Shown here one piece after another: positions 19,965-39,711 of a DNA stretch of 64,000 bases; the first letter of the stretch is position 1; the number at the start of each line of letters is the position of its first letter. Source of the stretch: Sporopachydermia quercuum (Eukaryota). The notes beneath the pieces were generated by a model that had not been told where the DNA came from, searched no databases, and saw nothing but the letters and a program-made list of their open reading frames with translations. The stretch lies in assembly GCA_001599295.1 (NCBI GenBank), contig BCGN01000001.1:2046001-2110000 (forward strand). Reading direction: 5' to 3'. The translations under genes and the position numbers were made by a program.

Positions 19965-22163
19965 ATGGGTCAGAATTCTAGCTTACCTGAGGGCAATCAT
20001 ACAGGCAACTCTATCACTAGAAAAGAAGTTTTGAGCCAATTTGCTCGCAATTGCTACAACCGCTTACTTCCAATAGAACAATGGGCTCTCAAAGTAAGTT
20101 ATTTTGATTTTCACAATAACTATCTCAATTTTAATGCATTATTTTGGTGAACAGTATATATCTTGCTGATGTTAATAGTTTCATACTAACCCCTCTTGTT
20201 TTTATTGCAGGATGGTTATAAGCAGTTGTTGCCTGATACCAGTAAACTATGGGGAAGATCAGAACTGTATGTATAAATATGCATAATGCTGCAGAATTGA
20301 TGCAATAGTTAACTGGGTTTTGAAGATAAACGGATTATGGAAAAGATAATGAGAACAATTTATGATCATTAAACTAACAAATAAGCTAATAGAAAGAAGG
20401 CCTTACAGTTAGACACTTTATCGGAAGAGTACTCTAAAGTTATTGTTGATATCCTGTTTATAGCAGGAGGATTTCCGTTTTTGAAACCGGAAATCAAACA
20501 AGTGTTCAGTAGGGAAGATTTTGTCCGGTGTGTTACTATCTGTACTGAGCGGTATAAAGCAGTACTGGGAGTTGATTTTGACATAGTGAACTTGTATTTT
20601 CTATTGTTCCTATACAGTGAAAAATGTGAGGTTTTGAAGTCGGACAATCTATCGGAAGGAAAATCGGAAAAGATCCCAAAAGAAAGTATTGAGAAAATAA
20701 CGGAAAAGATATCAAAAACTACTATGGAAGACGGTTCTGAATCAAAATTGGAAGTAGTATTACCGGAAAAGCTGTATAGAGTTGGATCTGTTTCCGATAT
20801 ATTCCTTGATCAGCCGCTAGCGGAAGATTCAACTATATCAGCTCAGCATCTATGCCTCATTCTATCTGTTCTGCTTCAAGTATCATGGCTCAATGCCGAC
20901 CGGCACGTGCTTATAAAAGCCCCTAGATTCGAGAACTTGAAATTCAACGGAACAAATAATTATCGGGAAGAAGTTATAAATGTTTTAAGAGGTATGAACC
21001 AAGAAATTTCGGTTTCTAAAGATGATGCTTATTTTGTTTCCGGAACTGTTTCTTACAAACAATTTCGAAGCGCAATCGAATCATCTATGCAGAACTTGTT
21101 ACCTTGTTTTGGCAAATTAACTGAAAGTATGCTATTTAATGACTCAATGCAGAATTACAAAGCGGCTGCTGCTAGAAATTCCATCTCAGGTCATTCTCGG
21201 AACAATTCTACCTCTTCAGATCAGCACCCTTCCGAAAAACCATCAGCTACATCAGAGAAATCGGAAGCAATATTAGACGATTCACCAGAAAAACTTATTC
21301 CTGCTTCCGATATCAATTCCGACCCAACATTTGAATCACGGATAATATCACCGCCTCTATTAGCACATATGGCTCTTTTCCTAGACAACACTATGATATA
21401 TTCAAGACTTAAAAAACTATACATTGCTGCAGAAACAGGTTTCTCTATGCGCTCATTGGAAGCGAAAGTATTTCATTGGAAAGCTCCGACAATCATACTA
21501 ATCAAAGGACTAAGGTTACCCGCTGATCCGAAAGGACCTCGGCACAGAGCTTTTGAGGAATCATTTCCGGCTTTACCGTTTCAGTCGCGTGAAGTCACTT
21601 CTTCTCATACAATAGGAGAAAAACTTTCATTTGGAATTTTCATAAATTCTCCTTGGAAGAAAACCGGAAAACAAGGTTTCGGAGATGAAAAGACTGTGTT
21701 ATTTCAATTATCTCCAATTCATGACGTGTTTCACACGTCCTCCTTAATCTCGGAAAACATATACTTTTCAGCGCAAGGAGGTGGCTTTGGTGTAGGTTCA
21801 AAACCTCCTATTGTTTCCGGTCACAGTAAGAAAGTCACCCGAAATACCGGAAACATTAGTTTCAGTATCGATGACTCTCTAGAATATGCAGTATTTCGAC
21901 ATGCGGGTCCCGGCGGTAGTTTTCATATTAGTAAGCAAAGGGGCCATCTAGAATGGGAAGATAGGATGAGAATCACTGATTTGGAAGTTTGGGGTTGTGG
22001 GGGAGAGAAGGAGTTAGAGGAAATGCGGAAACGATATGAATGGGAAGAAAGAGAAGCTTTAATGCGTAGTCAGGTGTCTTTGAAATCCATTAATGATGAT
22101 CGGGCGTTGTTGGAGATGGCGGGTATAATAGGAAACCACGGAGCAACTGGGGGTTCGGTATAG
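19965..22163 (+). CDS. RTC5: TLDc-domain protein Rtc5 (two introns, ~651 aa)
   Basis: Exons 19965-20093, 20211-20266 and 20393-22163. Introns GTAAGT/tactaac/gcAG and GTATGT/aactaac/atAG keep the frame. MGQNSS myristoylation-type start; TLDc motifs GFSMRSLEAKVFHWKAPTI, LEVWGCG and WEEREA..R. Confidence 0.9.
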
Positions 22164-22455
22164 ATTATAGGAAAGTGAAGGACGAAATCGGAACGGAAAT
22201 ATCAGAGGAAAAATCATATGACAATAACCATAAATCGACATTAACTCTTATATCTGATTCTGAGGATTGCGGTACCGTTTGTCGCGCGGAATGAACAAAC
22301 ACTACCATATTAACATATATATACTACAAAATCTACGAAATCTGTTAGTGTCTCAACGATGATGGTAATAAACATTAACAATGATCATAAATATGTTAGC
22401 CATGAATAAACTATGCATTTACCTTATGAATGTGTATCTATTTTACCGTCTATTC

Positions 22456-24183
22456 CTATTTTCTTGATTTCCCTTTCCTTTGGAGCTTCTTCTTCTCATA
22501 TTTCTTGATCTTATGAGTCCTTTTCTCTCTTTTCTCTTCCTTAGCTAACTGCTTTCTTTCTTTTTTTACTTCCTTGTTTTCATGTTTCTTACCTTTCAAA
22601 GGCTTTAGCTTCCTCCTTCGAGGGTTGTCTCCATCTGATTCATCTTCAGAATCCTCATCTGAATCATAGTCAGATTCATCATTGGAATCTTCCGATTCCA
22701 AACCTTCCGAAACATTTTCTTCCAGATGGCCTTCCAAGTGTTTTTCTGAGGTTTTCTCCCTGTCCGACTTTTCTTGAGTTTTCTTCTCTTTGCTTTCGAT
22801 ACATTTTTCAGCATTATTCATGATCGATTCTCCCTCTTCTGTTTTTCCTTCTTTTGTTCCTTCTGGCAACAAAGACCTATAAATCAAATTATCACCTTGG
22901 CCTTTATTCAGCTTCTCAATATCTCTTTCAACATCAAAAACTTCATTGAGATTTCTTGGAATGTATGCGGAACGAAATATAGCATCATTTAACTCACTAT
23001 CTTCCATTGATTCACCGAAATTCTCCATTGGCGGATTGTCTGCCAGATAGTCCATTAGTGATTCAACTGACTCATCCTTATCAAAAGGAACTTTTGGGTC
23101 TTTCATGGTAGCAAATGCAAATATTTCTCTTTCAGAATAAACAGCTACACCATTTCTCCTAAAATAATCATTTACATTCTTGATATCCATTCTTAAAAAC
23201 TCAAAACTTCTAGGATGACTGTGTTCCACTGATTGGGATACATCAATAACATAAACTCTTTCATTATGATAAATAAGATTGTATTCACTCAAATCCGCAT
23301 GAACCAAATGACATTTATTATAAAGTATTCGTATGATTCCTAATACTTCATAGTATATCAATTGATAGTTATCATCTTTGATTGCAGCATCTTTTAATCT
23401 TGGTGATGCCCAGCCATTAGGTTCTTTGATCAGTTCCATTACTAAAACATGAGATTGTAAAGCAATTGGTTCTGGAGATAAAATTCCTGATGAATAAATT
23501 CTTTTTAGATTCCTCATTTCCTTTTCAGCCCAAGTTTTAACCATTTTTCTTGGATTGTGCCGATTATAGCCAAATCTGTACCGATACTCTCCTGACACAT
23601 ATCTATCACGATCTTTAAAAATTAGAATCGAAGTTTTATAAATTTTTACTGCTCTCTGTAAATCAGTTGAATGTGGAACATCAGCATAGTAAACATTAGC
23701 TTCTTTACCTGTACTTATACATCCCCTTAGTTCCGATATGTATTCTTTATTAACTAATGTCTGAAGGAACTTTCTTGTTCTCCTATCTAGCACTTGATCG
23801 ACAGTCGCCCTATCAGCTTTATCCGTATGATTGACCTTCTTGATTGAAAATTCATCGGATTTGATCTGATTTTTGAACCTGGAAAATATTCCACCTTCTC
23901 TAAATGCGGACTGGCTTTTATTCCCAATATTTGGCATAAGAGGTTGCTGCTTCTCACTAACGCCAGCTTTAGAGTCAATGATGATCTCTTTAAGTGTCAA
24001 GTCACCAAAGATTTCTTGATACTCTCCATCAGAGGAAACTGAGTCATCCGAGCTTTCGCCAGTATCAAAATCAATATCATCGTCACCGTTTTCTATGCCG
24101 TAGAAATAGTTCAAGTCCGTCACCTTCATTTGACTTGATACTCGCTGTGAGAGCTTTTCTATCTCACTGACATCATCAGTCAT
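22456..24183 (-). CDS. RIO1: Atypical Ser/Thr kinase Rio1 (40S ribosome maturation)
   Basis: 575 aa. DKADRAT, ISTGKEANVY, AVKIYKTSILIFKDRDRY, LVHADLSEYN, IDVSQSVE; acidic then Lys-rich tail. Confidence 0.97.
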   Translation of the reverse strand: MTDDVSEIEKLSQRVSSQMKVTDLNYFYGIENGDDDIDFDTGESSDDSVSSDGEYQEIFGDLTLKEIIIDSKAGVSEKQQPLMPNIGNKSQSAFREGGIFSRFKNQIKSDEFSIKKVNHTDKADRATVDQVLDRRTRKFLQTLVNKEYISELRGCISTGKEANVYYADVPHSTDLQRAVKIYKTSILIFKDRDRYVSGEYRYRFGYNRHNPRKMVKTWAEKEMRNLKRIYSSGILSPEPIALQSHVLVMELIKEPNGWASPRLKDAAIKDDNYQLIYYEVLGIIRILYNKCHLVHADLSEYNLIYHNERVYVIDVSQSVEHSHPRSFEFLRMDIKNVNDYFRRNGVAVYSEREIFAFATMKDPKVPFDKDESVESLMDYLADNPPMENFGESMEDSELNDAIFRSAYIPRNLNEVFDVERDIEKLNKGQGDNLIYRSLLPEGTKEGKTEEGESIMNNAEKCIESKEKKTQEKSDREKTSEKHLEGHLEENVSEGLESEDSNDESDYDSDEDSEDESDGDNPRRRKLKPLKGKKHENKEVKKERKQLAKEEKREKRTHKIKKYEKKKLQRKGKSRK

Positions 24184-24437: not shown

Positions 24438-25495
24438 AAAAGATGTGAAGTGGTTGTAAGTGAGAAATAACGGAGACTATGAGGTGAAGAATAGGAAGAT
24501 TAGGTTGAGATGGTCTCCGCTTGATGTCAGAGGGAATGAAGAGGGTACAAGGAGAATGATGAATTCAGGACGATAGAATGTTGAAATTTGCTGGAAGTAG
24601 TAGAGCAATAGATTCTTTGAAATTTTTTCTTTCAGTTTCGGATTCACCAAAAAACATGCTATAATTATAAATTGATGGGATTCGTATAATACTTGATATG
24701 TTAGAATATCGGAGACTATATCACCGCAAGGTTTAAGTTTCAGAAATATGCATCTATTCTGTAAATGCAAACTCTAAATCAACATTTTCCCAGCTCACAT
24801 CAACTTTCAACTACATTTTTTCCTTTCACTCTTTGTACCCACCAAAATTCCTTCTAAATTGCAAAAAATGAAGTATACTCTTCGATTTGCAATCAAAAGC
24901 TATATCTAACATTTACTCAATTTACCCTTTAAACTCATCCTAAATAGCCTTTCCTTTTCAACATCATCAACAAAGCTTTAGTTCCCTAACACTCCTTCTA
25001 AATTTTTAAGGTAATATAATTTAAACCTTAATCAACAATACCGGAAATAATATGTCGCGAGTACAAATGAGAAAAAAATCACAATCTTCAAACTTATCGA
25101 TTTCCACTCAAATCATACCTATCAAATACTCACGTTTTACTATACAGATAGTTGTAAAATCTTTATATTAACCTATCTAAACATACAGGAGGTAATCATC
25201 ATTGAACTAGGCGTTGGTAATGGGTTTCCAGCTGAATAATTGTATTGCTTATTGACGTATCTGATGGGACGTACATTATAGAAGGCGCATCAGTGGATTG
25301 TATACTGACATTTGATGATACGAGCAGCACGATAAGTTTCAGAAAAGATAGTAAACACTTTTTAGGATATCCGAGCTCATAGCGGTATATATCTATTGCC
25401 TAATTTGACAGGTTTCTTATAGAACAGGAAGCTTAAAATTGAATTGGACACAAAGTAGCACATGACAGAGATTCAGCTTGGGTGTGAAACTGTAA

Positions 25496-28400
25496 ATGTC
25501 GGAAAAGACACAACCAGATACGGAACGGAGTTCCGATGCCGCTTCCGTTTCTGCTTCTGCCTCTGCTTCTGAGTCNAGGAGAAGCTCGGCTATATCGCCC
25601 AACGAGGAAAGTTGTCCAGAACCGCAGCAGCAGCTCAGCATGAAAATGGAACTGGAAGAACTCGGTAAAGATATTTCAAAGAGCCGAGCCAACTTTGCCG
25701 ATGACCGCCAACAAGAACTAATGCGTCGAGCCATTCTGTTGCTTGGTAAGTTGGACGATCGGCACTGGTTTTGTGATGATAATGTATGTCCTGTTGCCGT
25801 TCATACATTGCTACTATTTTCATTTGATCCNAACGCTTCAGCATTAGTATGGCTAAAACAGCGTCTTTCGGTACAATTGAGTCGATGTTACCAATGCATT
25901 CGGCATTTTCATCTCGGAAGAGCTGAGCTTCGAAACGATTTAGTTGCAATCTCAGGATTAGGTATTATAGAAGTAAATACGTTCATGTATACAATATTTA
26001 CCTGGCTTGCTTCGGAAACGGAAGGCAAGCTTCGGAAGGGAATTGAAATGGTACAAAAATTTGAAGAGGATCACCCGGTGGAAGAAAAGGAAATTGACAA
26101 AGCTTCAGGAACCGCCGGATATCACACGGCAGAAAACAGAGCATTATTCGCATCATTATCAAATGATGTTCTTGTAGCATACTACGATTGTTTCACTTGT
26201 TGTTATTTATTACGGATGAACTCGGAATTACGGCAATTATTCTCTAGTTTATTCCGAAAGCTTATTTCACGGAATCTCAGATTCACGGAATCTCATGTAC
26301 TTCCGTTGGTGGTTTATCTTTGTTTTAATGATGATGAAAATTCTAGTTACTCGGCAGAAAATGTCACTTCACTGTCAATTTGTGACCCAGAAATCAAAGA
26401 TTGGGTCCGTGAAACCTTAATGTCTCTGCCCCGGAATAATTCGGAAAAAATTAACACCGGAACTACTCGGTTGACGTTCCCCATGGATCCATTATTGTTA
26501 GAGGAATTCAACTTTTATTTGATAGAGATTCAGAAACCGCAATCATTCCCGGAATTAGAGATGAAATTTTGGTCGGAACTTTCGTTTTTCTCAGATTGGT
26601 GGAGTGTAGAAAGTTTAATAAAAGGTCTTGGAAGTATTCCCTTATTAGAAAAGCTGCGAGCGGATATAACTCCGGGATTATATCCGTTGTTTGAACTGTT
26701 CTCCAAGAGACTGGCCCTTGAAACGTACAGACGGAAAGAATTACTTCCGGTCTTACTTCGAAATCTCGGATGTTTNTCCCGGGCTTTCGGGNCACAGTTG
26801 CATACGGATTTATATGTATTATCGGATGATTTCACACCTGAAAAACTGCTTAATATAACCCAAGCTGATGACTTTTTAACTTCCGCCTCGGAACTGAAAC
26901 CCAAAAGTCAACTCCGGACTTCAGAGCTGGATCGAGATGTCGCAAATCTCTCCGATTTATCCGAATGGCTTGAACCATATCTAAAAACCCTAAACCCCGA
27001 AACTTTATCATCGACAGTACTACAAACAATGGATAACATATTANGAATTTTATCTTTATCATCTGGAGAAAAGGAAAATACGGAAAAGATAAAGGAACCA
27101 GAAGATCCCTCGGAAATGAACCAAGCGACCTGTCTTTGGACCTGCGTATATTATTTGATCCAAGAGGGGTTTGATATTTCCCTTTATGGTAGTCTCAACG
27201 CATCGAATGGGGAACTATTCGCTAAACTATCGGTATTACTTCCTTTTCGGGAAATAATTGAGGACAACCACAAAAATATCATCACTCCGTTTACCCAATT
27301 AGGTGGGCTTCCTTCNGATATCTGCAAAACCATCCAAACCTTATCTGCTACCGCCATCAACCGAATTCTCACTTATGACATTACGTTAATGGCCCAAGAA
27401 ACCATTCTTTTCTCAACCGGAAACAATATTCTNCCGTCATCNCTGCCTGNTTCNTTCCACGTTAAATTCTGGAATTACGCTCGAAAAACTTGCCGAGCTG
27501 ATGTTTTCTTAGTGCAGCAAATATTTCGAGCATTTAGAAACGTTGTAGCCGTTTCCATTATTCCTGAACCTAAATCTGACGAGAGTCCGGAAACTATATC
27601 CGATTCAACAAATAAAATCAGTTTAGACAAAACTGAAACAATACAAACCTCGGTTCAAAAGTTCAACTCGGTCTCAGAACAAATTTTCCGAGCTATTCAA
27701 TCACTATTAGTAAGGATCGGAGATTATGACGGAGATATTCTCCGATCCAGCATTCTAAATTCACCGGAAGCTTTAGAAGGGGTGTTTTCCGCTATGCTAT
27801 CAGTGAATGTTCAGATAAAAGAGGCGGCTACGGATATTTTGTACCAAAGCTTTGATGACGATGAATTAGGAAATAGCTCTGATATTGTTTCCGATATTGG
27901 TTCTGACATTAATTCTGATCTAGGGTCATTGTCGGTTAGAATNAAAGCATTACGGAAATTATGCCTATCATCTTTAGAATCCACGCTTTTNGCTTTCAAT
28001 CAACTTCTCCGTACTGTTATTATGTCTACCGGTTTTCCCTCTTGCCCTAAAGCAATCAAGTTTCAAATGGATATCCTATCAGTTTTAACTGCNTCTAGAG
28101 GCGGGATACTCCAAGAGTCATTCTTAGAGAAAAATATCGGAGATTATATGCAATTGAAGAGATTCTGGCGCCGAAGCTGGGAATTTTTAGGATATGTTTT
28201 TGTACAGATTTTCCAATGGGCCGAGCATTATTCATTCCGAGTTCTGGTGGAATTTACCCGAGATGTTCTTGATTATAGCAACCGATTAATAGATACGCTT
28301 CCAGTGTTTTCCGAATCATTATCTATCTCCGTTCCGACCGATCGGGTGAACCGGATGCTTGTCGGATGTGTTGTTAAAGCTGTTCCGAATATGATTTCTT

Positions 28401-31400
28401 GGCTTCGGCTTGGAGATGAATCATTGTTACGGTCCTGTGTACGGATGATTACTTTAGTATTAGATATACTTAAGGAACAAGGAGAACCCTTAGCCAATGA
28501 AATAACGGAAAAATTAGCATGGTATGGTGGAACGGAAGATCGGAAGTACCGAAGTAAGCTCACCGAAGCTCAAAAATCTGANCTAATAAGCCGTGCTCGG
28601 TACTTTGATGAGAAACTGGTGGAAGGCGTTATTCTGCAATATCAGGAGAAATTACGGCAAGTTGCGGAACGGAAGAAAATTATGGATACAGTCAGCAGAT
28701 CTGTTACTCCTGCCGCTATTATTTCGGGAATGTCAAAGCGCGTTGGAACTTCCAGTTATGATAACAGCAAAAATCGCGGAAATAATACCAGAAAAACAGA
28801 ATACAATTTATCTTCAAAGAATCCAGCAATTTCTTCCGATATCGAAATTATTGAAACTTCGGCATCTACTCAAACACGGAAGACTCAGGACGTTCTTTCC
28901 GCAATTAAGACATTAAGTAATCCACAGGAACGTATGAAAATAGGGTTTAGACCCATTCCAGCCGTTCCGACATTTCCTAGGGATAAACAGCCAAAAATNA
29001 CTGCATTCGCAAAACATTCAGCTCCATCTGTTCCAAGAACAAGCAACTTCAACTTTCCTTCCTCTCATTCCGCTTCCTTGGCACCCCATTCCGCTGTTGT
29101 TGCCGATGGAACATCTCGAATGAGCATGATGGAAAAAGCTCGGGAGGACCTTCGGAAGAAAAGGTCAATGGAAGCAAACATGCAAAAATTATACACTTCA
29201 ACACCATCGCTTAAGGGCAAAACGTTGGTTATTCATCCGGCAAGACCGGCTGGATTCCGGGTCGGTACGGAGACCGATAAACTTGAGTCTAAATCTGGCA
29301 ATGCCGACCCGATACCGTTACCGGATCCGGAAAAGATTATAGCNAAATTAGGCTTAGCCGATAACGAACATAACAATTCTTCCTCTGACGAGGACGATTG
29401 CGATTTCGCTTCCTTATTCGGAAATTCCTCTGAATCAGGCAAATCCCATATTAGGAAACTATCCCGTAATACGCCGGGATCTCTTTCCGTTTTCGATAAA
29501 GAACGCCAAGAACGGTATATGCGTGAAAGACTGAACGTTAATTTAAGTCCTTTGTACCAGCAGATTCTTCTTTGGAAATTTTCCGCTTCGGGTGAATTTC
29601 CCCTCGGAAAAACTAGGGATTCTTATAAACCAGTTGCGGATTCCTTCCGTTCCGTTAAAGAATATCAGGCCATTTTTGAACCCCTTTTACTATTAGAATG
29701 TTGGCAGCATTTACAAGCTGCTAAACAGACGTCTTCAGATAAGCCCTTCCGAATTGTTTTGGGCACTCGAACTACCACAGATTGTTTTTTCGATATTTAT
29801 GCCTCAATTGAGAGAAGCGTATTAGAACAACAACGTCTTTCCGACGCCGATTTGATTGCTTTGGCGTTATCGTGTGATTCTGATAATCTCACGGGAAAAC
29901 CTGGAGTGGAACTACTTGCAGCAAAACCTAATTCCTGTTTAGGTAAAATAACCGAGATCAAACCCACTTCTGCAGGCTATACAGATATAGTAATTCGGGT
30001 ATCTTCGGAAGGAAACTTCGGTGTTGGATTGGCTCCTAGAACTGAAGTGGTTGCCGTTAAACTAATGGCAATGCCGACAATTGAACGTGAGTTTTCTTCC
30101 GTCCGAGGATTACCCTACTATGATTTAGGCCAACAGATTGTTCGGGCTGAACCTGCAGACGTTGCACAGGCTCCTTGGGCAGAAATCCGGGATATCATGA
30201 CACTATATAAAGTTAATCAGTCACAAGCAAGAGCCATTTCTGGGTCATCTCGAGCCGAAGGATTCTCCCTAATTCAGGGACCGCCCGGAACAGGTAAAAC
30301 GAAAACCATTTTAGGTTTGCTAGGTCATTTGATCCGGTTCGACACTACCACCGCTAGAGGAGAAGTAGTGGGGCAACCGGTAGATCCGAAAATAGGTAAT
30401 AGTACGAATCGCACCCGGTCTGGGCCAGGTTTTTCCGGTTCTTCAAGTCAATATTCGAATTTCGAGGCAGGAAACGGTTCTGTACTTAATTCGGAAATCT
30501 CTACGGCCAAAAAGTCTGCACCTATACTTGTTTGTGCCCCTAGTAACGCAGCAGTAGACGAATTGGTTATTCGGATAAGAGACACGTTGCAGGCAAAAGT
30601 TGTTCGGCTGGGCCGATCGGAAGCAATCCATCCTAAAGTTCGAGACACAACTTTAGAGGAGTTAGTGGAGCGGGAATTGACTAAAAACCGAGAAGCCGCC
30701 TCGGAGTCGGCCCGGTTGAAAGCGGAAGTTCGGCAGATCTTGGAAGAGCGGGTAATTATCCGGGCTAAGCTAAACGACACCTCGGTACAAGAAGTCGAAA
30801 TCTCGAAACTAGAAACTCGACTGCAAGTATTGAACCGTCGGAAGCGGATATTGGACCGACAGTTAGATGAACAAAGAGAACAGAATGCAGTTTCGGACCG
30901 GAACCGAGAAATTGACCGTCGGAACCTACAAAAGCAAATCCTATCCAAAGCGGAAGTAATATGTGCGACTTTATCCGGTTCCGCTCATGATTCATTAGTA
31001 AATCTCGGCGTTCGGTTCGACATCGTTGTCATAGATGAAGCAGCTCAGTGTGTAGAATTGTCGGCAGTTATTCCTCTTCGGTACGGTTGTCGGAAGTGTA
31101 TTATGGTTGGTGATCCGAATCAGCTTCCGCCTACAGTTTTATCTCCGGCTGCATCAGCGTTACGTTATGAACAGAGTTTATTTGTTCGAATGCAAAGGAA
31201 CAAACCGGGAGCGGAACACTTATTAGATGTCCAATATCGGATGCATCCAGAAATATCAGCATTTCCAAGCCGAGAATTCTATAACTCTCGGCTTCTTGAT
31301 GGGCCCGAGATGAGACAATTAACTGAAAGACCTTGGCATAAAGAGCCTTGGTTCGGACCCTATTTACTGTATGATATCGGATCCGGGCAGCAAGGACAAT

Positions 31401-32749
31401 CAGAACGGTCGAAATCATTCCACAATCAGCAAGAAGCTCAAGCCGCAGTAGAATTAGTACAAGAGTTATTCCGAAGGTTCCCCACGGAAGAGTTTATGGG
31501 TAAGATCGGAATTATTTCTCCGTATAAGGAGCAAGTTAAGCTTCTTCGGAGTTTGTTCTTCCGAGCTTTCCGAGATATTGGAATCTCGGAGATTGTCGAT
31601 TTTAACTCTGTGGACGGATTTCAAGGCCAAGAAAAAGAAATTGTAATTTTGTCCTGTGTCCGAGCGTCGGACAACGACACAACAGTTGGGTTTCTTGGAG
31701 ATACCCGGAGAATGAATGTGGCTTTGACGCGGTCTAAAAGCAGTTTATGGATATTGGGAAATATTGTATCATTACGTAAACACCATGTCTGGAAAGACTT
31801 AGTGGCTGATGCCATCACTAGAGGAAAAGCGGTTAGAGTTAAAGGAAATATCCGTGAGACAATAAGCAACTGGTCACAAGGAAGAGAACCTGCGATTGTG
31901 GATGCCGAGATTGGCTACAAACGGAAGGAATTTCCAAATCGAAATTTGGAAGTCAGGGCGAAACCGGAAGTGGGTGCGGAAGTAGAAAGAGGAAGAGGAA
32001 GAGGAATAAATGCTTACAGGAATCACGGAATGAAAGCTGATGCCGACGTAGAGGGCTACAAACGAAGGAAAAGATCTAATCAGTTCTCAAATAAGGAATC
32101 TATCGGAGACAGTNTTACTGAATGGGGGAATAAATCAACGAAAATTCTCCAATCGGAAAGAGACAAAGACCTAAAACGGAAGCTAGAAAGAAAAGCTGGA
32201 AAAAAAGCTGAAAAGAAAGCAGTGAAGAAAGCAGAAAAGAAACTTAAGCGTAAAGAAGATAAAGTTAGGACCTCGGAAGAAAGCAATGAAGTTACCGAAA
32301 ACCCCGATTCTGATTCAAGCATAGAAACTAACCGGGATAACTCAGAGCTCTCCGATGGCCGAACAAGCTTTTGGGCTCGAATGAATAAAAAATCACAAAA
32401 CATACCAACAGGAAAACGGAAATACTCGTTCTCTAATAGTAACGGAGCGGGAGCTTCGTATAATATTTATCCGAAAAATAGCCCTGCTGAAGCTTTAAAG
32501 GTTAATAATAGCCTAGAATTACCACCGAAACCAAAACCGAAACTAACGAGAGGACGGGGAAATCCTAAAGAGTCTAATATTCTCCGGACGGGTAACAACG
32601 GCAGTAAATTACCGCCTAAATCTCCTGCATCTGTTTATGAATCTCGAGCTTCGATTCCGAAAGGTCCAACAAGGGAAACTCCGGAATCTCCGGCAACTAA
32701 AGTTTTCCGACGCAAGGAAAGCGATATGTTCATACGACGGAAACGATGA
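25496..32749 (+). CDS. SEN1: Sen1/senataxin SF1B RNA/DNA helicase
   Basis: 2417 aa. Sen1 N-terminal region (HWFC, LLLFSF, C..C..HFH). Helicase motifs GPPGTGKTKT, VCAPSNAAVDE, DEAAQ, VGDPNQLPP, QYRMHPEI, DGFQGQEKE, RRMNVALTR. Confidence 0.96.
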   Translation: MSEKTQPDTERSSDAASVSASASASEXRRSSAISPNEESCPEPQQQLSMKMELEELGKDISKSRANFADDRQQELMRRAILLLGKLDDRHWFCDDNVCPVAVHTLLLFSFDXNASALVWLKQRLSVQLSRCYQCIRHFHLGRAELRNDLVAISGLGIIEVNTFMYTIFTWLASETEGKLRKGIEMVQKFEEDHPVEEKEIDKASGTAGYHTAENRALFASLSNDVLVAYYDCFTCCYLLRMNSELRQLFSSLFRKLISRNLRFTESHVLPLVVYLCFNDDENSSYSAENVTSLSICDPEIKDWVRETLMSLPRNNSEKINTGTTRLTFPMDPLLLEEFNFYLIEIQKPQSFPELEMKFWSELSFFSDWWSVESLIKGLGSIPLLEKLRADITPGLYPLFELFSKRLALETYRRKELLPVLLRNLGCXSRAFGXQLHTDLYVLSDDFTPEKLLNITQADDFLTSASELKPKSQLRTSELDRDVANLSDLSEWLEPYLKTLNPETLSSTVLQTMDNILXILSLSSGEKENTEKIKEPEDPSEMNQATCLWTCVYYLIQEGFDISLYGSLNASNGELFAKLSVLLPFREIIEDNHKNIITPFTQLGGLPXDICKTIQTLSATAINRILTYDITLMAQETILFSTGNNIXPSXLPXXFHVKFWNYARKTCRADVFLVQQIFRAFRNVVAVSIIPEPKSDESPETISDSTNKISLDKTETIQTSVQKFNSVSEQIFRAIQSLLVRIGDYDGDILRSSILNSPEALEGVFSAMLSVNVQIKEAATDILYQSFDDDELGNSSDIVSDIGSDINSDLGSLSVRXKALRKLCLSSLESTLXAFNQLLRTVIMSTGFPSCPKAIKFQMDILSVLTXSRGGILQESFLEKNIGDYMQLKRFWRRSWEFLGYVFVQIFQWAEHYSFRVLVEFTRDVLDYSNRLIDTLPVFSESLSISVPTDRVNRMLVGCVVKAVPNMISWLRLGDESLLRSCVRMITLVLDILKEQGEPLANEITEKLAWYGGTEDRKYRSKLTEAQKSXLISRARYFDEKLVEGVILQYQEKLRQVAERKKIMDTVSRSVTPAAIISGMSKRVGTSSYDNSKNRGNNTRKTEYNLSSKNPAISSDIEIIETSASTQTRKTQDVLSAIKTLSNPQERMKIGFRPIPAVPTFPRDKQPKXTAFAKHSAPSVPRTSNFNFPSSHSASLAPHSAVVADGTSRMSMMEKAREDLRKKRSMEANMQKLYTSTPSLKGKTLVIHPARPAGFRVGTETDKLESKSGNADPIPLPDPEKIIXKLGLADNEHNNSSSDEDDCDFASLFGNSSESGKSHIRKLSRNTPGSLSVFDKERQERYMRERLNVNLSPLYQQILLWKFSASGEFPLGKTRDSYKPVADSFRSVKEYQAIFEPLLLLECWQHLQAAKQTSSDKPFRIVLGTRTTTDCFFDIYASIERSVLEQQRLSDADLIALALSCDSDNLTGKPGVELLAAKPNSCLGKITEIKPTSAGYTDIVIRVSSEGNFGVGLAPRTEVVAVKLMAMPTIEREFSSVRGLPYYDLGQQIVRAEPADVAQAPWAEIRDIMTLYKVNQSQARAISGSSRAEGFSLIQGPPGTGKTKTILGLLGHLIRFDTTTARGEVVGQPVDPKIGNSTNRTRSGPGFSGSSSQYSNFEAGNGSVLNSEISTAKKSAPILVCAPSNAAVDELVIRIRDTLQAKVVRLGRSEAIHPKVRDTTLEELVERELTKNREAASESARLKAEVRQILEERVIIRAKLNDTSVQEVEISKLETRLQVLNRRKRILDRQLDEQREQNAVSDRNREIDRRNLQKQILSKAEVICATLSGSAHDSLVNLGVRFDIVVIDEAAQCVELSAVIPLRYGCRKCIMVGDPNQLPPTVLSPAASALRYEQSLFVRMQRNKPGAEHLLDVQYRMHPEISAFPSREFYNSRLLDGPEMRQLTERPWHKEPWFGPYLLYDIGSGQQGQSERSKSFHNQQEAQAAVELVQELFRRFPTEEFMGKIGIISPYKEQVKLLRSLFFRAFRDIGISEIVDFNSVDGFQGQEKEIVILSCVRASDNDTTVGFLGDTRRMNVALTRSKSSLWILGNIVSLRKHHVWKDLVADAITRGKAVRVKGNIRETISNWSQGREPAIVDAEIGYKRKEFPNRNLEVRAKPEVGAEVERGRGRGINAYRNHGMKADADVEGYKRRKRSNQFSNKESIGDSXTEWGNKSTKILQSERDKDLKRKLERKAGKKAEKKAVKKAEKKLKRKEDKVRTSEESNEVTENPDSDSSIETNRDNSELSDGRTSFWARMNKKSQNIPTGKRKYSFSNSNGAGASYNIYPKNSPAEALKVNNSLELPPKPKPKLTRGRGNPKESNILRTGNNGSKLPPKSPASVYESRASIPKGPTRETPESPATKVFRRKESDMFIRRKR

Positions 32750-33342
32750 GCAGTATTAGATAGTAGTAATTGCGGAGGTAATGATGAATTTAATGAGGTA
32801 CAGGGGAAGATTTGAATGACAGAAGTTGTTCGAATTAATGCATAGACAAATATAACCAAGAATTGAATAATAAAATCAGTTTATAATGTTAGTAGCGGAA
32901 TTTAGAGAATTTTGATGCCCAAGTCTGAGCGGTCAAAACGGAGGGGATGAGTGTTTTTTGATTATGTAATCTGTATATAGCAGGAGTCTGGTGGCTATCT
33001 ACTCTACTATTCATTCGCTGGGATGTAATAAAAACAACGAGCTGCCTTCTTAGGTAGGAGAAAACTGTTCTTCTCCTTTAGATTATTATCAACCGTAAAA
33101 AGCTACTCAGCTATTTGCACGTTCTCATTTTCTCATTACATATTACCTGTTCCACGATGCTACTTCTACTACTTCTCTACTACTAAAATATAAGTATGCA
33201 TAATTCATGCACAAGAAGCAACATGTACGCAACTTAGTTTAGTATTAATAAATAATTAGCTGATCATCGATTTTATCACATTTTTTGATCACCTAATTAA
33301 AAACTCTCATGGTGAGACTCGATGTCTCACCCTTTTTATTAT

Positions 33343-33351
33343 AATTTTTCA
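33343..33351. promoter_or_regulatory. RRPE-like element upstream of DPH2
   Basis: AATTTTTCA about 175 bp upstream of the DPH2 ATG. Short AT-rich motif. Confidence 0.3.
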
Positions 33352-33521
33352 GTACTTAGGGAGAATAATCTTTTTCCTTACTATTAGAAGATTCGTTAAA
33401 TAATGTTTGTTTTAGTTTTATCAATGAATGTGAGCGTATTATAACAATATTCTGCAGGCATTGTCACCAAATAAGTAGTCATTTTCTTTCATACGCCTGT
33501 CCAGTTGAACATGTATATATA

Positions 33522-35438
33522 ATGTCAGGAGCAGTACCAGTAGCGTTTTCTACTGCGCAGGAAGAAGCAGTTTTTGATTTGGAATTCTCCAAACAAGAGA
33601 CCTCTCAGCAACAATCGGGACTATCTCGGAAAGGGTTAGACATTTCGGCATCACAAACAGAGGTCATTTCGGCATTAAGAAGTTTTTATTGCCTACCGGC
33701 TTTAATTACTTATTTAGCTAAATCTGCATACCGAAAAGTGGCGCTACAGTTCCCTGATGATTTAGTATCAGATGTGACATTAGTAGCCCGAGAAGTTGAA
33801 GCAGGAGTTTTCAGAACTCGAAAATTGAAAAGGAAACATTCAAAAAGTAGAACAAACAGTCATGAAACAGGGGAAAATCATGAGAAGAAGCATAAAGATG
33901 GAGAAGAGTGTAAGAAAACATGTGCCGATTGTAAATGTTCATCTGAGATTGAAAACAGTGTCCCTGGAGGGCTACAAACACATTCGGATAATTCCTACTC
34001 GGAGGTTGACTCTAATGCTGATTCCAATCCTGTTTTCTCGGTTGCTGTTCTTGCCGATACTTCGTATTCTCCATGCTGCGTTGATACTGTGGCGGGTCAA
34101 CATATAAATGCTGATGCTGTGGTGCATTTTGGTGATTCATGTTTAACCAAAGTTGAAGGACAGGCAATTTATGTTATGGGTAATGCTCATTTTGATTATT
34201 CTTTAGGCTTGAAGACTGTGAAAAGTAAGTTTCAGGAGAAATCGGATAAAATAGCTGTGATGGCTGGAACATTATTTCAGTCACACGTGGAAGAGTTTTC
34301 GCGTATTATGCATTCTGAGTTTGATGATGTGATTTATTCTAAGATAAGTTTGACTTATGATGCTAAGATACTAAATGAGGATGGAATTATTAGTTCCGAT
34401 AAGTTCCGATATTCACAAGAACTAACTGAAATATCCGAAGTATCCCGAAGATTGTTTTTCCAAGTTGAACCAGATTCTGAACGGGAAATAGTATCGAATG
34501 TGTCTGATTATAATCTTATATTATTAGCAAATCCTCCCCCTCCTTTTCTCCTTTATCTTACAACAAAGTTTTCATCAGTTAATATAATTAATCCTTCAAG
34601 CTCTGAGTACAGTCTAACCACAGGACCTTTCCCTGGACTGAAAAGAAGATATCGGTATATGCATATTGCTCGTTCTGCTGGTGTAGTAGGAATTCTTATC
34701 AACACGTTATCATTAAAGAACACAAGAAGTCTAGTGAATACGCTAATAAAATGGGTCAAGGAAGCAGGCAAGAAACATTATTTATTTGTTGTTGGTAAGC
34801 CGAATGTAGCAAAGCTTGCAAATTTCGAATCTGTTGATGTTTGGGTTGTCATTGGTTGTGGACAAGGTGGTATGATACTTGATGAAGAGCATGAGTTTTA
34901 TAAGCCAATAATTACGCCGTATGAGCTTCAATTAGCTCTAACGTATGAGGTTTCTTGGACAGGACAATGGGATATCAATAATGATGTTTTTTTGCATAGT
35001 GATGAAGAAATGAGACCATCTGAAGGAGAAGAAACTGCTGTTTGTAGTGAAGAGGATAATGATAAATCCACTGATGCGGATGTACCAATGTTTGACTCTG
35101 TTACAGGTAAATATGTATCCACACATAAACCATTGAAAGTCTTAACCCAACATATTGAGATAGGTGATGATACCGATCGTGATACTAGTACTGTAGCAGA
35201 CGATAAGGATAAAGATGTCAATCAATTAGCCAAGAGAATTTCAGATGCGTTAATTATAGGTAACACTGTTTCAACGTCAGCAAAGGCATTACAGAATAGA
35301 TCATGGCAAGGATTAGGATCTGATTTCAATGAGCTATCGGAAGAAGTGTATAATTATGATTCAGAAGGTGCAGTGCTTGAACAAGGGTTGTCAGGAGTAG
35401 CAAGAGGGTATGCAGTAGGTTTAGGGTCCAGGCGTTAA
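33522..35438 (+). CDS. DPH2: Diphthamide biosynthesis protein Dph2
   Basis: 638 aa. VALQFPD, LADTSYSPCCVD, VVHFGDSCL, GILINTLS, VVGKPNVAKLANF, KPIITPYEL, RSWQGLG, G.SGVARGY. Confidence 0.96.
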   Translation: MSGAVPVAFSTAQEEAVFDLEFSKQETSQQQSGLSRKGLDISASQTEVISALRSFYCLPALITYLAKSAYRKVALQFPDDLVSDVTLVAREVEAGVFRTRKLKRKHSKSRTNSHETGENHEKKHKDGEECKKTCADCKCSSEIENSVPGGLQTHSDNSYSEVDSNADSNPVFSVAVLADTSYSPCCVDTVAGQHINADAVVHFGDSCLTKVEGQAIYVMGNAHFDYSLGLKTVKSKFQEKSDKIAVMAGTLFQSHVEEFSRIMHSEFDDVIYSKISLTYDAKILNEDGIISSDKFRYSQELTEISEVSRRLFFQVEPDSEREIVSNVSDYNLILLANPPPPFLLYLTTKFSSVNIINPSSSEYSLTTGPFPGLKRRYRYMHIARSAGVVGILINTLSLKNTRSLVNTLIKWVKEAGKKHYLFVVGKPNVAKLANFESVDVWVVIGCGQGGMILDEEHEFYKPIITPYELQLALTYEVSWTGQWDINNDVFLHSDEEMRPSEGEETAVCSEEDNDKSTDADVPMFDSVTGKYVSTHKPLKVLTQHIEIGDDTDRDTSTVADDKDKDVNQLAKRISDALIIGNTVSTSAKALQNRSWQGLGSDFNELSEEVYNYDSEGAVLEQGLSGVARGYAVGLGSRR

Positions 35439-36139
35439 AGGGTAGCAATAGGGATATGGTATATATGTCAATGTGAGTTTATTAGCCTTCTTCGTACTTG
35501 GGAGATTTAATGTATTTATATAGTGATTTATTTCTTAAATCAGTCTATGGGAAAAGACCGTTATCTCTCTAGACCAATAGTTAATATTTCCTCTCAATCA
35601 CTTGAACTTTTTCCAGAAAGTTATGCAATTTGCAAAATATCAATTGCCCTTTGAAAAAACATATAAGTCCGTTATAATTATAGTAATTCTACAAGTCCCA
35701 GTCAAACAATCCCCTAATTGTCGAATAACCAACTTTTATTCTAACCTAACCTAACATGGCCAAACTTGAACTAAGCTAACCTTTCAAGCCTGCACTCAGT
35801 TAAGCTAGTTAAGGTCTGAAAGTCTTCTGAAATAACCCCCAATTCTAAATTCAATTTCCTTTCTGGGTTATNATATTCAGTAGCTTCTGGTCAGTCTCAT
35901 CATCATCAGAGCAATGGAAGCACTTACAAGGACGGCCTCTTTCATTACTGTCAAGGGCTTTTACAGTAGAACGGTGAAAAATACTGGACATCACACACTA
36001 CTTTCACGTATATCCTTATCTTTATATGTGTTTTATGGGGTAAACACGTAATAAAATAAAGATTATAGCAAAGAATTAAGTCACAAGGCACAATAGCCAT
36101 AGCCAATAACCATACGACACACAAAGTAATTATCACAAA

Positions 36140-37566: not shown

Positions 37567-39711
37567 ATGATACATAACATAATACATACACAAGTGCCAG
37601 AATCAGACCCAGAATCAAGTCCACTTATGGAACCAGNGCACTCAAGATATGATGAACATTCTTCAAACAAGCCTGAAGTTAGTTTTTTATCACCATCAGA
37701 AAACTACAAATCATTTGAAGATGCTGGGAACTTAGAAAACGGGTTTGGACCTCAATCAAACGGTGTGACGGAGGATCACGATATCTCAAATCAACAATAC
37801 AGCAAAAGAGAAGGCAAAACTAAAATGGATTCTGTTTATGTCACTAACTATGAACCAATTAATATCTCTTCCGGATTGGGTTCACTTTCAGGAAGCGTAT
37901 CAACATATGTTCAGACTATTGACCATAATCAAGTTGAAGACCTAATGTCTTGTTCCGTTAGAGAACTCCACCATATTCTCAGTGAACCTTTGAAAGAAAG
38001 TATTGGTGACTTAGGGAACTTTCCCATTCCCAATGCCCCTTCTCCGCAGATGATTCTTAATCCTCTGCATTATCTAACAAGAGAATCAGCTATCGTCAAA
38101 AAGAGTTTAGAGCAATACTTAGCTGCTCAAGCCTATGTTCTTAGAACTGGGAAAAAATTCAGAGCTTCTAATGGTGAGATTCTATCAATACAGAGGATAC
38201 GGAAAGAATTGAAGGCTTCATGGAGTAAATTGAAAGACATTGAATCAGCATTTGAAGAGTTGTATAACAAGGAAAAAAGCCGGAGGGAAAGTAANGTGAA
38301 ACAGCTCGATTCTTGTGAGTCAAAGAAATCGAGCATTATTGCCAAGGTTAAGTCAATTCGCAGCGACGAAACAACAGAAGCCAGAAAACTAAAATTGCTA
38401 AAAGAAACGAAAAGAGAAATCTTCACAGAAATTGAAGAGTTGAAATTACGACTTGAACAGCTAACTGACCAGGAAAAGCTGGTGGATGAAGAAATTATAT
38501 CAACAGAAAGCGTAATAGAAAGCAGAGCAAGTTCATATGTTGAAAGTTTGCGAGAAATCAATCAAGAAGAATCTTCTTTACTGAGAAACTGGATCGCAGA
38601 AGATCAATCTTTCAATAAGCTTCTACCCATATCCCTTCCTAATCTTTCAAGTATTCAATCAAGATCTAGTTTACCGTTATCTAGAACTTTTTTATCTACT
38701 ATGGAGTCATCTATACGTGATCTGACTGCTACAAAGGGTCTGCAGAAAATTTTGCAAATACCATCTGTGCTATCAGAAACGTTCTCTAATAATAAGGACC
38801 TCGGTTCGGATTCCTTGTTAATATCAACCGATAACAACGAAAAGCAAAATGGAAGTTCCAGTGACGAGATATACTCACTAAATGAGAATTCTGTTGAGGT
38901 TGAATATATGCAAGAATCATTAACGCTTCAAATTGAAGCATTAGAAGAAAATATTTCCAATAAGGCTCAGCAGAAAGTGCAATATGATGCATGCTTATCC
39001 TTGTGGAGAAGTATTGAACAGCTCGTTAATGAAATGGAAGAAAACATTGAAAGCTTAGCTGAATCTAATGCTGAATTAAATGGGAACACTGATAACATAA
39101 GGAAAGTTCTGAAAAGCACTTTAGACATGATTCAATCACGGTATGATACAGCTAAAGAAATACATAATGACGATCTAGCTGATGCTATATCAAATGAGGC
39201 CAATGTGATCTCTACAGCTCTGACATTGATCACAGATAGGGTTCTTTGTAAACCAAAAAATAAAAGCCAAATAGTCTTTGATTCTGACAATGAAGATGGG
39301 TATTACGACAATGAAATGCATCTCTCTGATTTTCATGGCAGTGATAAAATAGGACAGTATTCTAATGGCCCCCACAATTCAGAAGACATTTCTCAACACT
39401 TTTATGAGCCATCAATAACCATTTCTAATAAGCAAAATAATGACAATAGTACTGATTCTATGGACAACCGAAATATTCACAACTTGGGTTCCAGGGTATC
39501 ACCACCTAGCTTTCCTGTGGTAACTGTTTCTAATATCAATGCTGAATATGAGAAACCAAAGCAGAAATCAATCAGAGCCATTGGCGATTTTCAGGTAAGA
39601 AATCCACCCCCAGATAGTATAGGAAAGATATCTAAAGAAATGAAAAAAGTAGGGCAAATAGTAGGTAATATGATTGGAACGAAGAATGAGAAGCAGCAGA
39701 AGAGAGATTGA
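37567..39711 (+). CDS. Long coiled-coil protein, probably Atg28-like (autophagy/pexophagy)
   Basis: 714 aa open frame. The central coiled coil EIEELKLRLEQL...ESVIESRASSYVESL resembles fungal Atg28 as I recall it; this assignment is unverified and the start codon is uncertain. Confidence 0.6.
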   Translation: MIHNIIHTQVPESDPESSPLMEPXHSRYDEHSSNKPEVSFLSPSENYKSFEDAGNLENGFGPQSNGVTEDHDISNQQYSKREGKTKMDSVYVTNYEPINISSGLGSLSGSVSTYVQTIDHNQVEDLMSCSVRELHHILSEPLKESIGDLGNFPIPNAPSPQMILNPLHYLTRESAIVKKSLEQYLAAQAYVLRTGKKFRASNGEILSIQRIRKELKASWSKLKDIESAFEELYNKEKSRRESXVKQLDSCESKKSSIIAKVKSIRSDETTEARKLKLLKETKREIFTEIEELKLRLEQLTDQEKLVDEEIISTESVIESRASSYVESLREINQEESSLLRNWIAEDQSFNKLLPISLPNLSSIQSRSSLPLSRTFLSTMESSIRDLTATKGLQKILQIPSVLSETFSNNKDLGSDSLLISTDNNEKQNGSSSDEIYSLNENSVEVEYMQESLTLQIEALEENISNKAQQKVQYDACLSLWRSIEQLVNEMEENIESLAESNAELNGNTDNIRKVLKSTLDMIQSRYDTAKEIHNDDLADAISNEANVISTALTLITDRVLCKPKNKSQIVFDSDNEDGYYDNEMHLSDFHGSDKIGQYSNGPHNSEDISQHFYEPSITISNKQNNDNSTDSMDNRNIHNLGSRVSPPSFPVVTVSNINAEYEKPKQKSIRAIGDFQVRNPPPDSIGKISKEMKKVGQIVGNMIGTKNEKQQKRD

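Follow-up and report, generated by a model that had tools for sequence, protein, structure and literature searches.

Why is the body of a single gene filled with the words CCG and CGG when the DNA around it is poor in them? This question is raised by the SEN1 gene of Sporopachydermia quercuum (GenBank assembly GCA_001599295.1, contig BCGN01000001.1, positions 2,046,001 to 2,110,000 of the forward strand). We analyzed this 64-kb stretch, called the window below, and all counts were made within it. The window is AT-rich, with a G+C content of about 0.30-0.37 per kb and long unbroken open reading frames (ORFs). Its SEN1 coding sequence (25496-32749, plus strand) encodes 2417 amino acids and carries the usual fungal domain set (Pfam SEN1_N, SEN1_barrel, AAA_11 and AAA_12). 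We observed 381 CpGs in SEN1 (observed/expected 1.16) and 307 CCG and CGG words, that is 42 per kb, compared to a CpG ratio of 0.64 and about 8 words per kb in the background. The answer that we favor, tentatively and at clearly less than even chances, is that these words, written CSG below (S = C or G), are actively maintained, by a putative reader and at the level of double-stranded DNA, throughout the bodies of some of the genes.

Size and nature of the word excess in SEN1

The initial annotation of this DNA had singled out SEN1 from hand counts of CpGs in CCG or CGG context, and these counts were exact: 35 of 47 CpGs at 30601-31200, 3 of 13 at 38101-38700 and 0 of 7 at 40561-41160. SEN1 is also saturated, as had been said of it. 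All 67 sliding 600-bp segments of the gene hold 14 to 40 words (median 24), whereas the 403 segments outside SEN1 and two further genes described below, a TLDc-domain gene and a NUM1-like gene, have a median of 4 and never exceed 20 words (95th percentile 12.9). The reported preference for CGG and CGA as arginine codons was likewise found: the 176 arginine codons of SEN1 are CGG (60), CGA (44), AGA (35), CGT (17), AGG (13) and CGC (7), so that 128 are CGN, and AGA accounts for 11 of 17 in SDH2 and 3 of 3 in the ORF at 40590.

A control for amino-acid composition and for G+C content at third codon positions (GC3), which the initial annotation had called for, was run with null models that keep the SEN1 protein and redraw only synonymous codons; the enrichment persisted under all of them. 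Codons drawn from the other ORFs gave 107.2 ± 9.5 words, or 93.7 ± 9.4 when the NUM1-like and TLDc genes were left out, compared to the 307 observed. A GC3-matched null (0.37) gave 124.1 ± 10.7 words, with a maximum of 159 in 200 simulations. When the synonymous codons of SEN1 itself were permuted, 236.4 ± 7.9 words were obtained (maximum 258 in 500), so that the words exceed even the codon usage of the gene (z of about 9), which agrees with the earlier claim of an effect at the DNA level. Since the own-codon null reaches 236 words and the neighbor-codon nulls 94-107, about two-thirds of the excess come from codon choice, and the last third from the placement of codons beside particular neighbors. 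The over-used codons are CGG (3.9-fold), CCG (3.5-fold), ACG and TCG (both about 2.1-fold). Non-optimal codons ending in G are not raised in general (GAG 0.85, AAG 0.76, TTG 0.76 and GTG 0.76 of background), and several usually optimal codons ending in C are. A local picture of translationally preferred codons is given by SDH2 (345-1178) and a MIP-channel gene (5295-6296), which show classical codon bias (GGT 0.70-0.73, TTC 0.65-0.71, AAA low) and in which CpG codons are rare.

We also compared SEN1 with a context-free neutral codon model, whose base frequencies come from synonymous sites unable to form CpG. SEN1 exceeded this model for CpG (381 vs 263 ± 14, 1.45-fold), for CCG and CGG (307 vs 118 ± 10, 2.6-fold) and for CGGAA and TTCCG (90 vs 18 ± 4). 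In contrast, five ordinary genes held 0.52-0.70 of the CpGs of the neutral model. The difference between SEN1 and ordinary genes is restricted to CpG-capable sites. At four-fold sites unable to form CpG, G or C was present at 121 of 363 (0.33) in SEN1 and 171 of 559 (0.31) in nine ordinary genes (p = 0.39), and two-fold codons ending in a purine had 0.28 and 0.33, respectively. At CpG-capable sites the fractions were 0.42 in SEN1 and 0.20 in ordinary genes (p = 9e-26), and for codons ending in a pyrimidine before G they were 0.40 and 0.18. General GC pressure and the usual GC-biased gene conversion were excluded, as non-CpG synonymous sites are unchanged and the flanks are at background. A relic of a GC-rich past was also excluded because non-CpG sites, which decay more slowly, have already equilibrated and match ordinary genes. 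The dinucleotides shift reciprocally: observed/expected for CpG and for CpA-TpG is 0.64 and 1.13 in the background, compared to 1.16 and 0.83 in SEN1, and non-ORF DNA has a CpG ratio of 0.66. Even in the background, CGG/CCG is the top trinucleotide relative to a first-order Markov model (1.21).

The CpGs of SEN1 have a strong context preference, with a preceding C in 0.38 and a following G in 0.43, compared to 0.21 for both in the background. Against expectations from permutation of the gene's own codons, we observed an excess of CGG (164 vs 126), CCG (143 vs 110), CGGA (89 vs 52), TCCG (65 vs 39), TCGG (70 vs 42), GGAA (111 vs 74), TTCC (64 vs 40) and CGGAAG (21 vs 4.9). The core word is CGGAA/TTCCG, found 56 times against 25.4 expected (z = 8.1) and 34 times against 15.3 (z = 5.7), so that each orientation is 2.2-fold enriched, in every codon phase. 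TCGT (5 vs 20), GCGA (7 vs 20) and ACGA (19 vs 33) are depleted, as is GCG. The CpGs are biased to TCGGAA/TTCCGA and away from GCG/CGC, TCGT/ACGA and GCGA. Before GAA, the third base of codons with C at the second position is G for 30 of 57 codons of SEN1 and for 9 of 14 of the TLDc gene (53-64%), compared to 0.21 in the NUM1-like gene (n = 107) and 0.07 in ordinary genes (n = 58). Several mutational routes reach one and the same word: arginine AGA to CGG, which takes two changes, NCT or NCA to NCG before G, and NNT to NNC before GG.

The pattern is independent of codon phase and strand-symmetric. CpGs fall on the three codon phases in numbers of 128, 127 and 126, which bears out the suggestion that the signal lies in the DNA rather than in the protein. 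Its presence on both strands was confirmed too, since in SEN1 the z-score of a word and that of its reverse complement correlate with r = 0.78 for 32 trinucleotide pairs and 0.58 for 120 4-mer pairs. The encoded protein contains 7.3% arginine, 7.6% glutamate (top among 20 aligned orthologues) and 5.0% glycine, and its R/(R+K) ratio is 0.53, compared to 0.33-0.60 in 19 orthologues and 0.36 in the other ORFs of the window. Arginine, glutamate and glycine are what CGGAA encodes in its three frames, so that the pressure extends to replacement sites.

Other explanations of structural or motif type were rejected. Hidden tandem or dispersed repeats are not the source, as only short low-score arrays were detected in 20000-56000 and 25000-33500. 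Pairs of CGGAA and TTCCG within 15-120 nt, which could form hairpins, were as frequent as under random placement. Selection on mRNA structure was rejected with a mean minimum free energy per 150 nt of −30.88, compared to −30.05 ± 0.54 in 40 synonymous permutations (z = −1.55). For Nab3/Nrd1, poly(A)-signal, TATA and splice-like motifs, |z| under own-codon permutation stayed below 1.2, so that avoidance of such motifs was rejected too; the exceptions were off-frame TGA (z −2.3) and runs of A (z −2.6 to −2.8). There is no overlapping ORF of at least 150 amino acids in SEN1, and off-frame stop counts are near the null. An assembly chimera was excluded, as the stretch 28094-36000, which joins SEN1 to its downstream neighbor DPH2, is covered in one unbroken piece and with zero differences by three contig sets, drawn from two samples at most.

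Limits of the island and genes that share it

The initial annotation placed the start of the signal near the ATG and let it fade into the 5′ end of DPH2; the start stands and the fading does not. SEN1 opens with ATG TCG GAA, the island begins at codon 2, and the first 50 nt hold 6 words. Upstream, the last word lies at 25383 and none occurs in 25384-25499, so that the 112 nt before the ATG hold 0 words. Downstream, the 250 nt after the stop codon contain 4 CGG and 0 CCG (32773, 32896, 32930 and 32939), where about 0.83 words per strand are expected (Poisson P = 0.01), and 1 of these 4 belongs to a CGGAA. The island thus ends at about 32945, some 190 nt past the stop codon, and the stretch 32750-32945 (plus strand), in which sense-strand CGG words persist, is probably the SEN1 3′ untranslated region (UTR). 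Only one CCG/CGG word is present in 33000-33600. DPH2 (33522-35438, plus strand), which taken whole is an ordinary gene, has a separate patch of 6 CCG/CGG words in 82 bp at 33616-33700, in codons 30-60, with four TCGG (aatcggga, tctcggaa and twice tttcggca).

Within SEN1, word use is even over seven segments, whatever the domain. Conserved and variable residues do not differ in the use of CGN for arginine (24 of 32 vs 73 of 98, p = 1.0) or of NCG (15 of 81 vs 64 of 296, p = 0.64). A regional regime, as first proposed, does not describe these results: the edges match the coding or transcribed unit, the flanking intergenic DNA is at background, and RIO1 (22456-24183, minus strand), which lies between the TLDc gene and SEN1, is unaffected.

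The island had been presented as a feature of SEN1, and it turned out not to be unique to it. The TLDc gene and, more weakly, the NUM1-like gene share its word preferences. The context profile of SEN1 correlates with that of the TLDc gene (r = 0.60) and of the NUM1-like gene (r = 0.67), in contrast to the value for nine ordinary genes taken together (r = 0.12, p = 0.36). Gene by gene, r with SEN1 was 0.59, 0.47 and 0.38 for the middle, 5′ and 3′ thirds of NUM1, 0.41 for a mitochondrial-carrier gene, 0.41 for a FAM210-domain gene and 0.24 for RIO1. It ranged from −0.20 to 0.19 for SDH2, MIP, ThiF, DPH2, the 37567 ORF, an amidohydrolase ORF, BTB and DOCK. At codon boundaries, ordinary genes show the reverse of SEN1, as their CpGs lie below the own-codon null in 5 of 6 (z −2.1 to −3.6), with ThiF as the exception (0.2). 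These z-scores are for all CpGs of a gene, whose number can change under this null at boundaries only.

The TLDc-domain gene (OXR1-like, Pfam TLD) lies 3 kb upstream of SEN1. Its large exon (20385-22163, plus strand) is as dense in CGGAA and TTCCG as SEN1 (12.9 vs 12.4 per kb). Under own-codon permutation, CGGAA was found 15 times against 4.9 (z = 5.6) and TTCCG 8 times against 2.3 (z = 4.1). In comparison with the neutral model, the gene has 66 CpGs against 56.5, 58 CCG and CGG against 26.8, and 23 CGGAA and TTCCG against 4.0. Its post-stop tail (22164-22298, plus strand) holds three sense CGGAA, at 22189, 22194 and 22287, where 0.056 are expected (P = 3e-5). A second frame, open over 22100-22294 across the TLDc stop, contains these three copies. 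The tail may be coding rather than UTR, in which case the true 3′ end would differ by a frameshift, an intron or a UTR. At the other end, the frame is open from 20385 and its first ATG is at 20724; an upstream intron is suggested by a branch-point-like aaactaac (about 20371) and by two ag sites (about 20391 and 20408), and the first of the CGG words, at 20422, directly follows the putative 3′ splice site. Four antisense copies of CGGAA/TTCCG lie upstream of this exon in 19000-19751, possibly in further small exons. Another group outside large ORFs has three copies in 57 bp (8411-8467).

In the NUM1-like gene (46435-55794, minus strand; 3119 amino acids, Pfam Mcp5_PH domain), the dialect is weaker, is strongest in 49555-52674, and CpG is about as frequent as under the neutral model (303 vs 320). 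A 172-aa ORF antisense to this gene (48860-49378, plus strand) is probably a by-product of composition there. The mitochondrial-carrier gene (15422-16684, minus strand) has an intermediate signal, with a CpG ratio of 0.85, arginine CGN of 0.65 and 23 CCG and CGG per kb, and its profile correlates as well with ordinary genes (r = 0.42) as with SEN1. The FAM210-domain gene (18367-19182, plus strand) is weakly intermediate, with 20.8 CCG and CGG per kb and arginine CGN of 0.62, and has no significant excess over its own-codon permutation. Two perfect TTCCGGAA palindromes, formed by overlapping TTCCG and CGGAA, were observed, one in the mitochondrial-carrier gene (16377-16384) and one in the TLDc gene (21038-21045). 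The dialect does not follow gene length, to which it had been linked: the 1.8-kb TLDc exon is as dense as SEN1, and a DOCK-like ORF (at least 669 amino acids, running off the window) and ORFs of 714 and 732 amino acids are without it.

Among 5.8 billion proteins searched, SEN1 and RIO1 have no close relative. The best matches of SEN1 reach 45-50% identity over 32-40% of the query, in the helicase part. Those of RIO1 reach 45-59% and are scattered over Mortierellomycota, Lipomyces, Nadsonia and Pezizomycotina. These matches place the organism in an isolated fungal lineage. As CTG codons align to leucine or hydrophobic columns, the standard genetic code applies. That the island is a general property of SEN1 was rejected from a single metagenome orthologue without it (n = 1; the only usable locus out of 79, the others being distant helicases). 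This orthologue, which is AT-rich and 34% identical, does not differ from its flank, with 1-7 words per kb and a CpG ratio of 0.28-0.57; its contig is itself AT-rich and strongly CpG-depleted (0.19-0.65). The window contains 54 N places (55 letters). The 5′ half of SEN1 (25576-29344) has 16 single Ns in 3.8 kb, a density about 6 times that found elsewhere (about 0.65 per kb), and 13 of the 17 SEN1 Ns are at third codon positions, as expected of masked heterozygous or ambiguous single-nucleotide polymorphisms; the contig sets covering 28094-36000 show no alternative letters. Structured RNAs and tRNAs were not detected in the window.

Maintenance, mutation or expression as possible sources of the words

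In Saccharomyces cerevisiae and Schizosaccharomyces pombe, CpG is reported to be hypermutable without methylation, with CCG/CGG among the most mutable trinucleotides (PMC4704713). If CCG and CGG were equally mutable here, mutation should erode such words rather than build them. Since the surroundings of SEN1 are CpG-depleted and these words are highly mutable in the two yeasts, we read them as actively maintained, and we infer this maintenance, as against mutational production, from the excess over neutrality, the converging mutational routes, the strand symmetry and the profile common to three genes. Such maintenance would come from weak selection, or from a fixation bias acting in a similar way, in favor of double-stranded CSG words spread evenly at about one per 24 bp, and its result would be a gene-body 'CpG-word island'. 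A sequence-specific reader of unmethylated CGG, for example a zinc-cluster-like or CXXC-like protein, might bind the words as DNA and set the chromatin or transcription state of SEN1-type genes. Zinc-cluster proteins read CGG half-sites. For the CXXC domain of CFP1, a 4-8-fold preference for unmethylated CpGG is reported (PMC3072069). A wider version of this proposal, which we hold to be doubtful, is a lineage-wide marking system in which unmethylated CSG words (TCGGAA/TTCCGA), placed every 25-80 bp or so and kept by selection against a mutational decay faster than that of any other trinucleotide, would define a class of SEN1-, TLDc- and NUM1-like genes for a DNA reader that sets their chromatin or transcription state, as an intragenic counterpart in fungi of CpG islands without methylation.

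Several observations weigh against maintenance by a reader. The signal is carried by 3- and 4-mers, and a third-order Markov model accounts for CGGAA by its 4-mers. As flanks past T at −1 and G at +1 also contribute little, the enriched unit is short, namely C-S-G with T...A flanks, and signals this short are more usual for mutation that depends on context than for the binding site of a protein. Ordinary genes are also reverse-complement symmetric (r = 0.65), though with a different profile, so symmetry alone is no proof of a special reader. In the NUM1-like gene, CGGAA is enriched in the sense orientation only (31 vs 15.5, z = 4.5; antisense 10 vs 10.4, z = −0.2), and all extra words past the SEN1 and TLDc stops are in sense orientation, which hints at RNA. 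A signal that sets in exactly at the ATG is better matched by a cause at the level of coding than by one at the level of DNA. Across the 16 ORFs, word density forms a continuum, from 2.3 to 42 per kb, with no clean split in two. CpGs are not clustered in SEN1, being under-dispersed per 100 bp (mean 5.2, variance 3.4), and among CGG/CCG pairs in four orientations, none of the spacings from 0 to 30 nt was prominent (at most 9 pairs per spacing). There is no known reader for CSG words, selection on about 300 sites of one weakly expressed gene would demand of each site an advantage that is difficult to conceive, and the mutability of CCG/CGG is known from S. cerevisiae and S. pombe, not from this lineage.

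Part of this evidence would be accounted for by a mosaic of CpG mutation, repair or methylation that is specific to gene bodies, a possible but rather unlikely cause in our estimation; the mutation or repair regime of the initial annotation thus ranks as a serious competitor, not as the favored account. Most of the genome, in genes and spacers alike, would lose CpG to TpG and CpA, and a few gene bodies would be exempt or CpG-biased through absent cytosine methylation, another chromatin state or more CpG-directed T:G repair, with CSG/TCGGAA as the flank preference of the enzyme. The reciprocal shift between CpG and TpG/CpA, the confinement to CpG-capable sites, the strand symmetry and phase independence, the shifted amino-acid composition, the 3-4-mer scale of the signal, the continuum of genes and the top rank of CGG/CCG already in the background are all in favor of such a process. 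However, SEN1 lies above neutrality in both CpG and CSG words and is not merely unsuppressed, and NCG before GAA rises to 53-64%. The change from AGA to CGG combines a transversion and a transition, beyond one repair bias. Intergenic DNA is as depleted as ordinary genes, unlike in gene-body-methylation mosaics, and to our knowledge cytosine methylation is not known in budding yeasts. No mechanism is known in yeasts for a symmetric mutational process that would start at the ATG, end shortly after the stop and leave out RIO1. A cause in translation is less probable again, and we regard it as unlikely. SEN1 is a dosage-sensitive, low-abundance helicase in S. cerevisiae, and inhibitory yeast codon pairs involve CGA, CGG and CCG. 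The rarest or slowest codons (CGG, CGA, CCG, TCG, ACG and GCG) and unfavorable pairs could hold its protein output or mRNA half-life low. In S. cerevisiae, inhibitory pairs are described as adjacent suboptimal codons (PMC6379720). This would suit the share of plain codon choice in the excess, the avoidance of the over-used codons by SDH2 and MIP (NCG 0.04-0.07, arginine mostly AGA), an island that starts at codon 2 and is even over the whole ORF, and the boundary CpGs that ordinary genes avoid (5 of 6) and SEN1 prefers. Translational codon bias would, however, be explained by codon identity, be tied to the frame and differ between conserved and variable residues, none of which is found in SEN1. 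The extra words are reverse-complement symmetric and as frequent across codon boundaries (126 CpGs in phase 3|1), TTCCG shares no coding meaning with CGGAA and yet has the same enrichment factor, GAG, AAG, TTG and GTG are not raised while several usually optimal C-ending codons are, and the words continue past stop codons.

The sense bias noted above leads to a reading in terms of RNA, in which copies of CGGA(A/G) would bind an RNA-binding protein controlling the decay, export or localization of a set of transcripts, as hexamer clusters mark meiotic mRNAs for removal in fission yeast. The sense-only enrichment of the NUM1-like gene, the orientation of the post-stop words of SEN1 (P = 0.01) and TLDc (P = 3e-5), the higher absolute counts of sense than of antisense copies in all three genes and the confinement of the signal to the transcribed part agree with it. 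We nevertheless judge it improbable, as antisense copies are equally enriched in SEN1 (2.2-fold) and in TLDc (about 3-fold), the symmetry reaches the depleted words, there is no excess of CGGAA/TTCCG pairing (15-120 nt) nor extra mRNA folding, and the TLDc tail may be coding. Lowest of all, and very improbable, is a foreign or introgressed origin of SEN1, TLDc and part of NUM1 from a CpG- and CGG-rich lineage. The atypical dinucleotide signature, the greater density of N sites in the 5′ half of SEN1, the strong effect in only a sub-region of NUM1 and an Arg/Lys ratio like that of the Babjeviella, Ogataea, Diutina and Brettanomyces orthologues (0.52-0.60), whose genomes are GC-rich, would suit such an origin. 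Three gene-exact blocks with unaffected flanks and an unaffected intervening gene are, however, unlikely for a transfer. Non-CpG synonymous sites have equilibrated to the host, and in that time the CpG words, which decay faster, should have been lost as well. The domains of SEN1 are those normal for fungi, and the gene, like RIO1, lacks close relatives and hence a donor signal, and the contig sets join it to DPH2 without differences. Overall, we rank maintained words before a gene-body mosaic of CpG mutation or repair, followed by translational de-optimization, an RNA element and a foreign origin.

Comparison with known systems

No description of a gene-limited CCG/CGG or CGGAA enrichment in a yeast was found in the open-access literature. 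Whichever reading holds, the contrast between SEN1/TLDc and RIO1/DPH2 can be tested within 15 kb. If the words are selected, they would point to a reader of coding DNA in a fungus, and codon-usage models with a single regime would misjudge such genes. If they are mutational, they would amount to a gene-exact, strand-symmetric variation of CpG mutation or repair in yeast without a known mechanism, and would bear on why CpG is hypermutable in the absence of methylation.

Classical CpG islands have a G+C content of at least about 50-55%. SEN1 resembles them in its CpG ratio, which at 1.16 over 7254 bases lies well over the usual criterion of at least about 0.6 (background 0.64-0.66). In contrast, the G+C content of the SEN1 ORF is 0.425, with a 200-bp maximum of 0.52, and the island covers the gene body, with the promoter side empty of words. 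The favored CpGG/CCpG of SEN1 is the trinucleotide reported as best bound by the CXXC domain of CFP1 (PMC3072069), but the TCGGAA flanks are no part of that system. Closer in genomic layout are the low- and high-CpG gene classes reported as a hallmark of gene-body methylation in invertebrates such as the honeybee (PMC2975444). As in such classes, CpG in the window differs gene by gene, is limited to transcription units, is strand-symmetric and phase-independent, and is reciprocal to TpG/CpA. Unlike in those classes, intergenic DNA is depleted too (0.66), and CpG in SEN1 rises above neutrality with a strong word preference. We know of no fungus, moreover, in which gene-body methylation is established.

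Other parallels concern the words themselves. E. coli very-short-patch repair has a context-specific T:G bias that enriches CCWGG-related words, a family of short palindrome-type words, on both strands; unlike the SEN1 pattern, it acts genome-wide and in a bacterium with Dcm methylation. Arrays of Zn2Cys6-like sites, one of the options in the initial annotation, match SEN1 in the word but not in its arrangement: Zn2Cys6 sites consist of CGG half-sites with A/T-rich flanks, paired at fixed spacing in promoters, whereas SEN1 has about 300 single words evenly through coding DNA with no preferred spacing. The over-use of CGG, CGA and CCG within an ORF recalls the rare codons and inhibitory pairs reported from yeast (PMC6379720), but the effect in SEN1 is frame-independent and mirrored on the antisense strand. 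Finally, budding-yeast genomes are reported to hold gene sets under different non-adaptive nucleotide regimes, which differ in GC3, form large physical blocks and have a cause that is left open (PMC9246145). SEN1 shares with these sets the presence of different synonymous regimes within one genome; for them, GC-biased gene conversion, nucleotide pools and deamination are debated. These sets are described by overall GC3 in blocks of tens to hundreds of genes; in SEN1 the boundaries are sharp and enclose just one gene, and only CpG words in their flank context differ. The usual accounts deal in GC3 blocks; here, with ordinary GC pressure excluded, what varies is a single short word of double-stranded DNA, and it varies at the scale of one gene.

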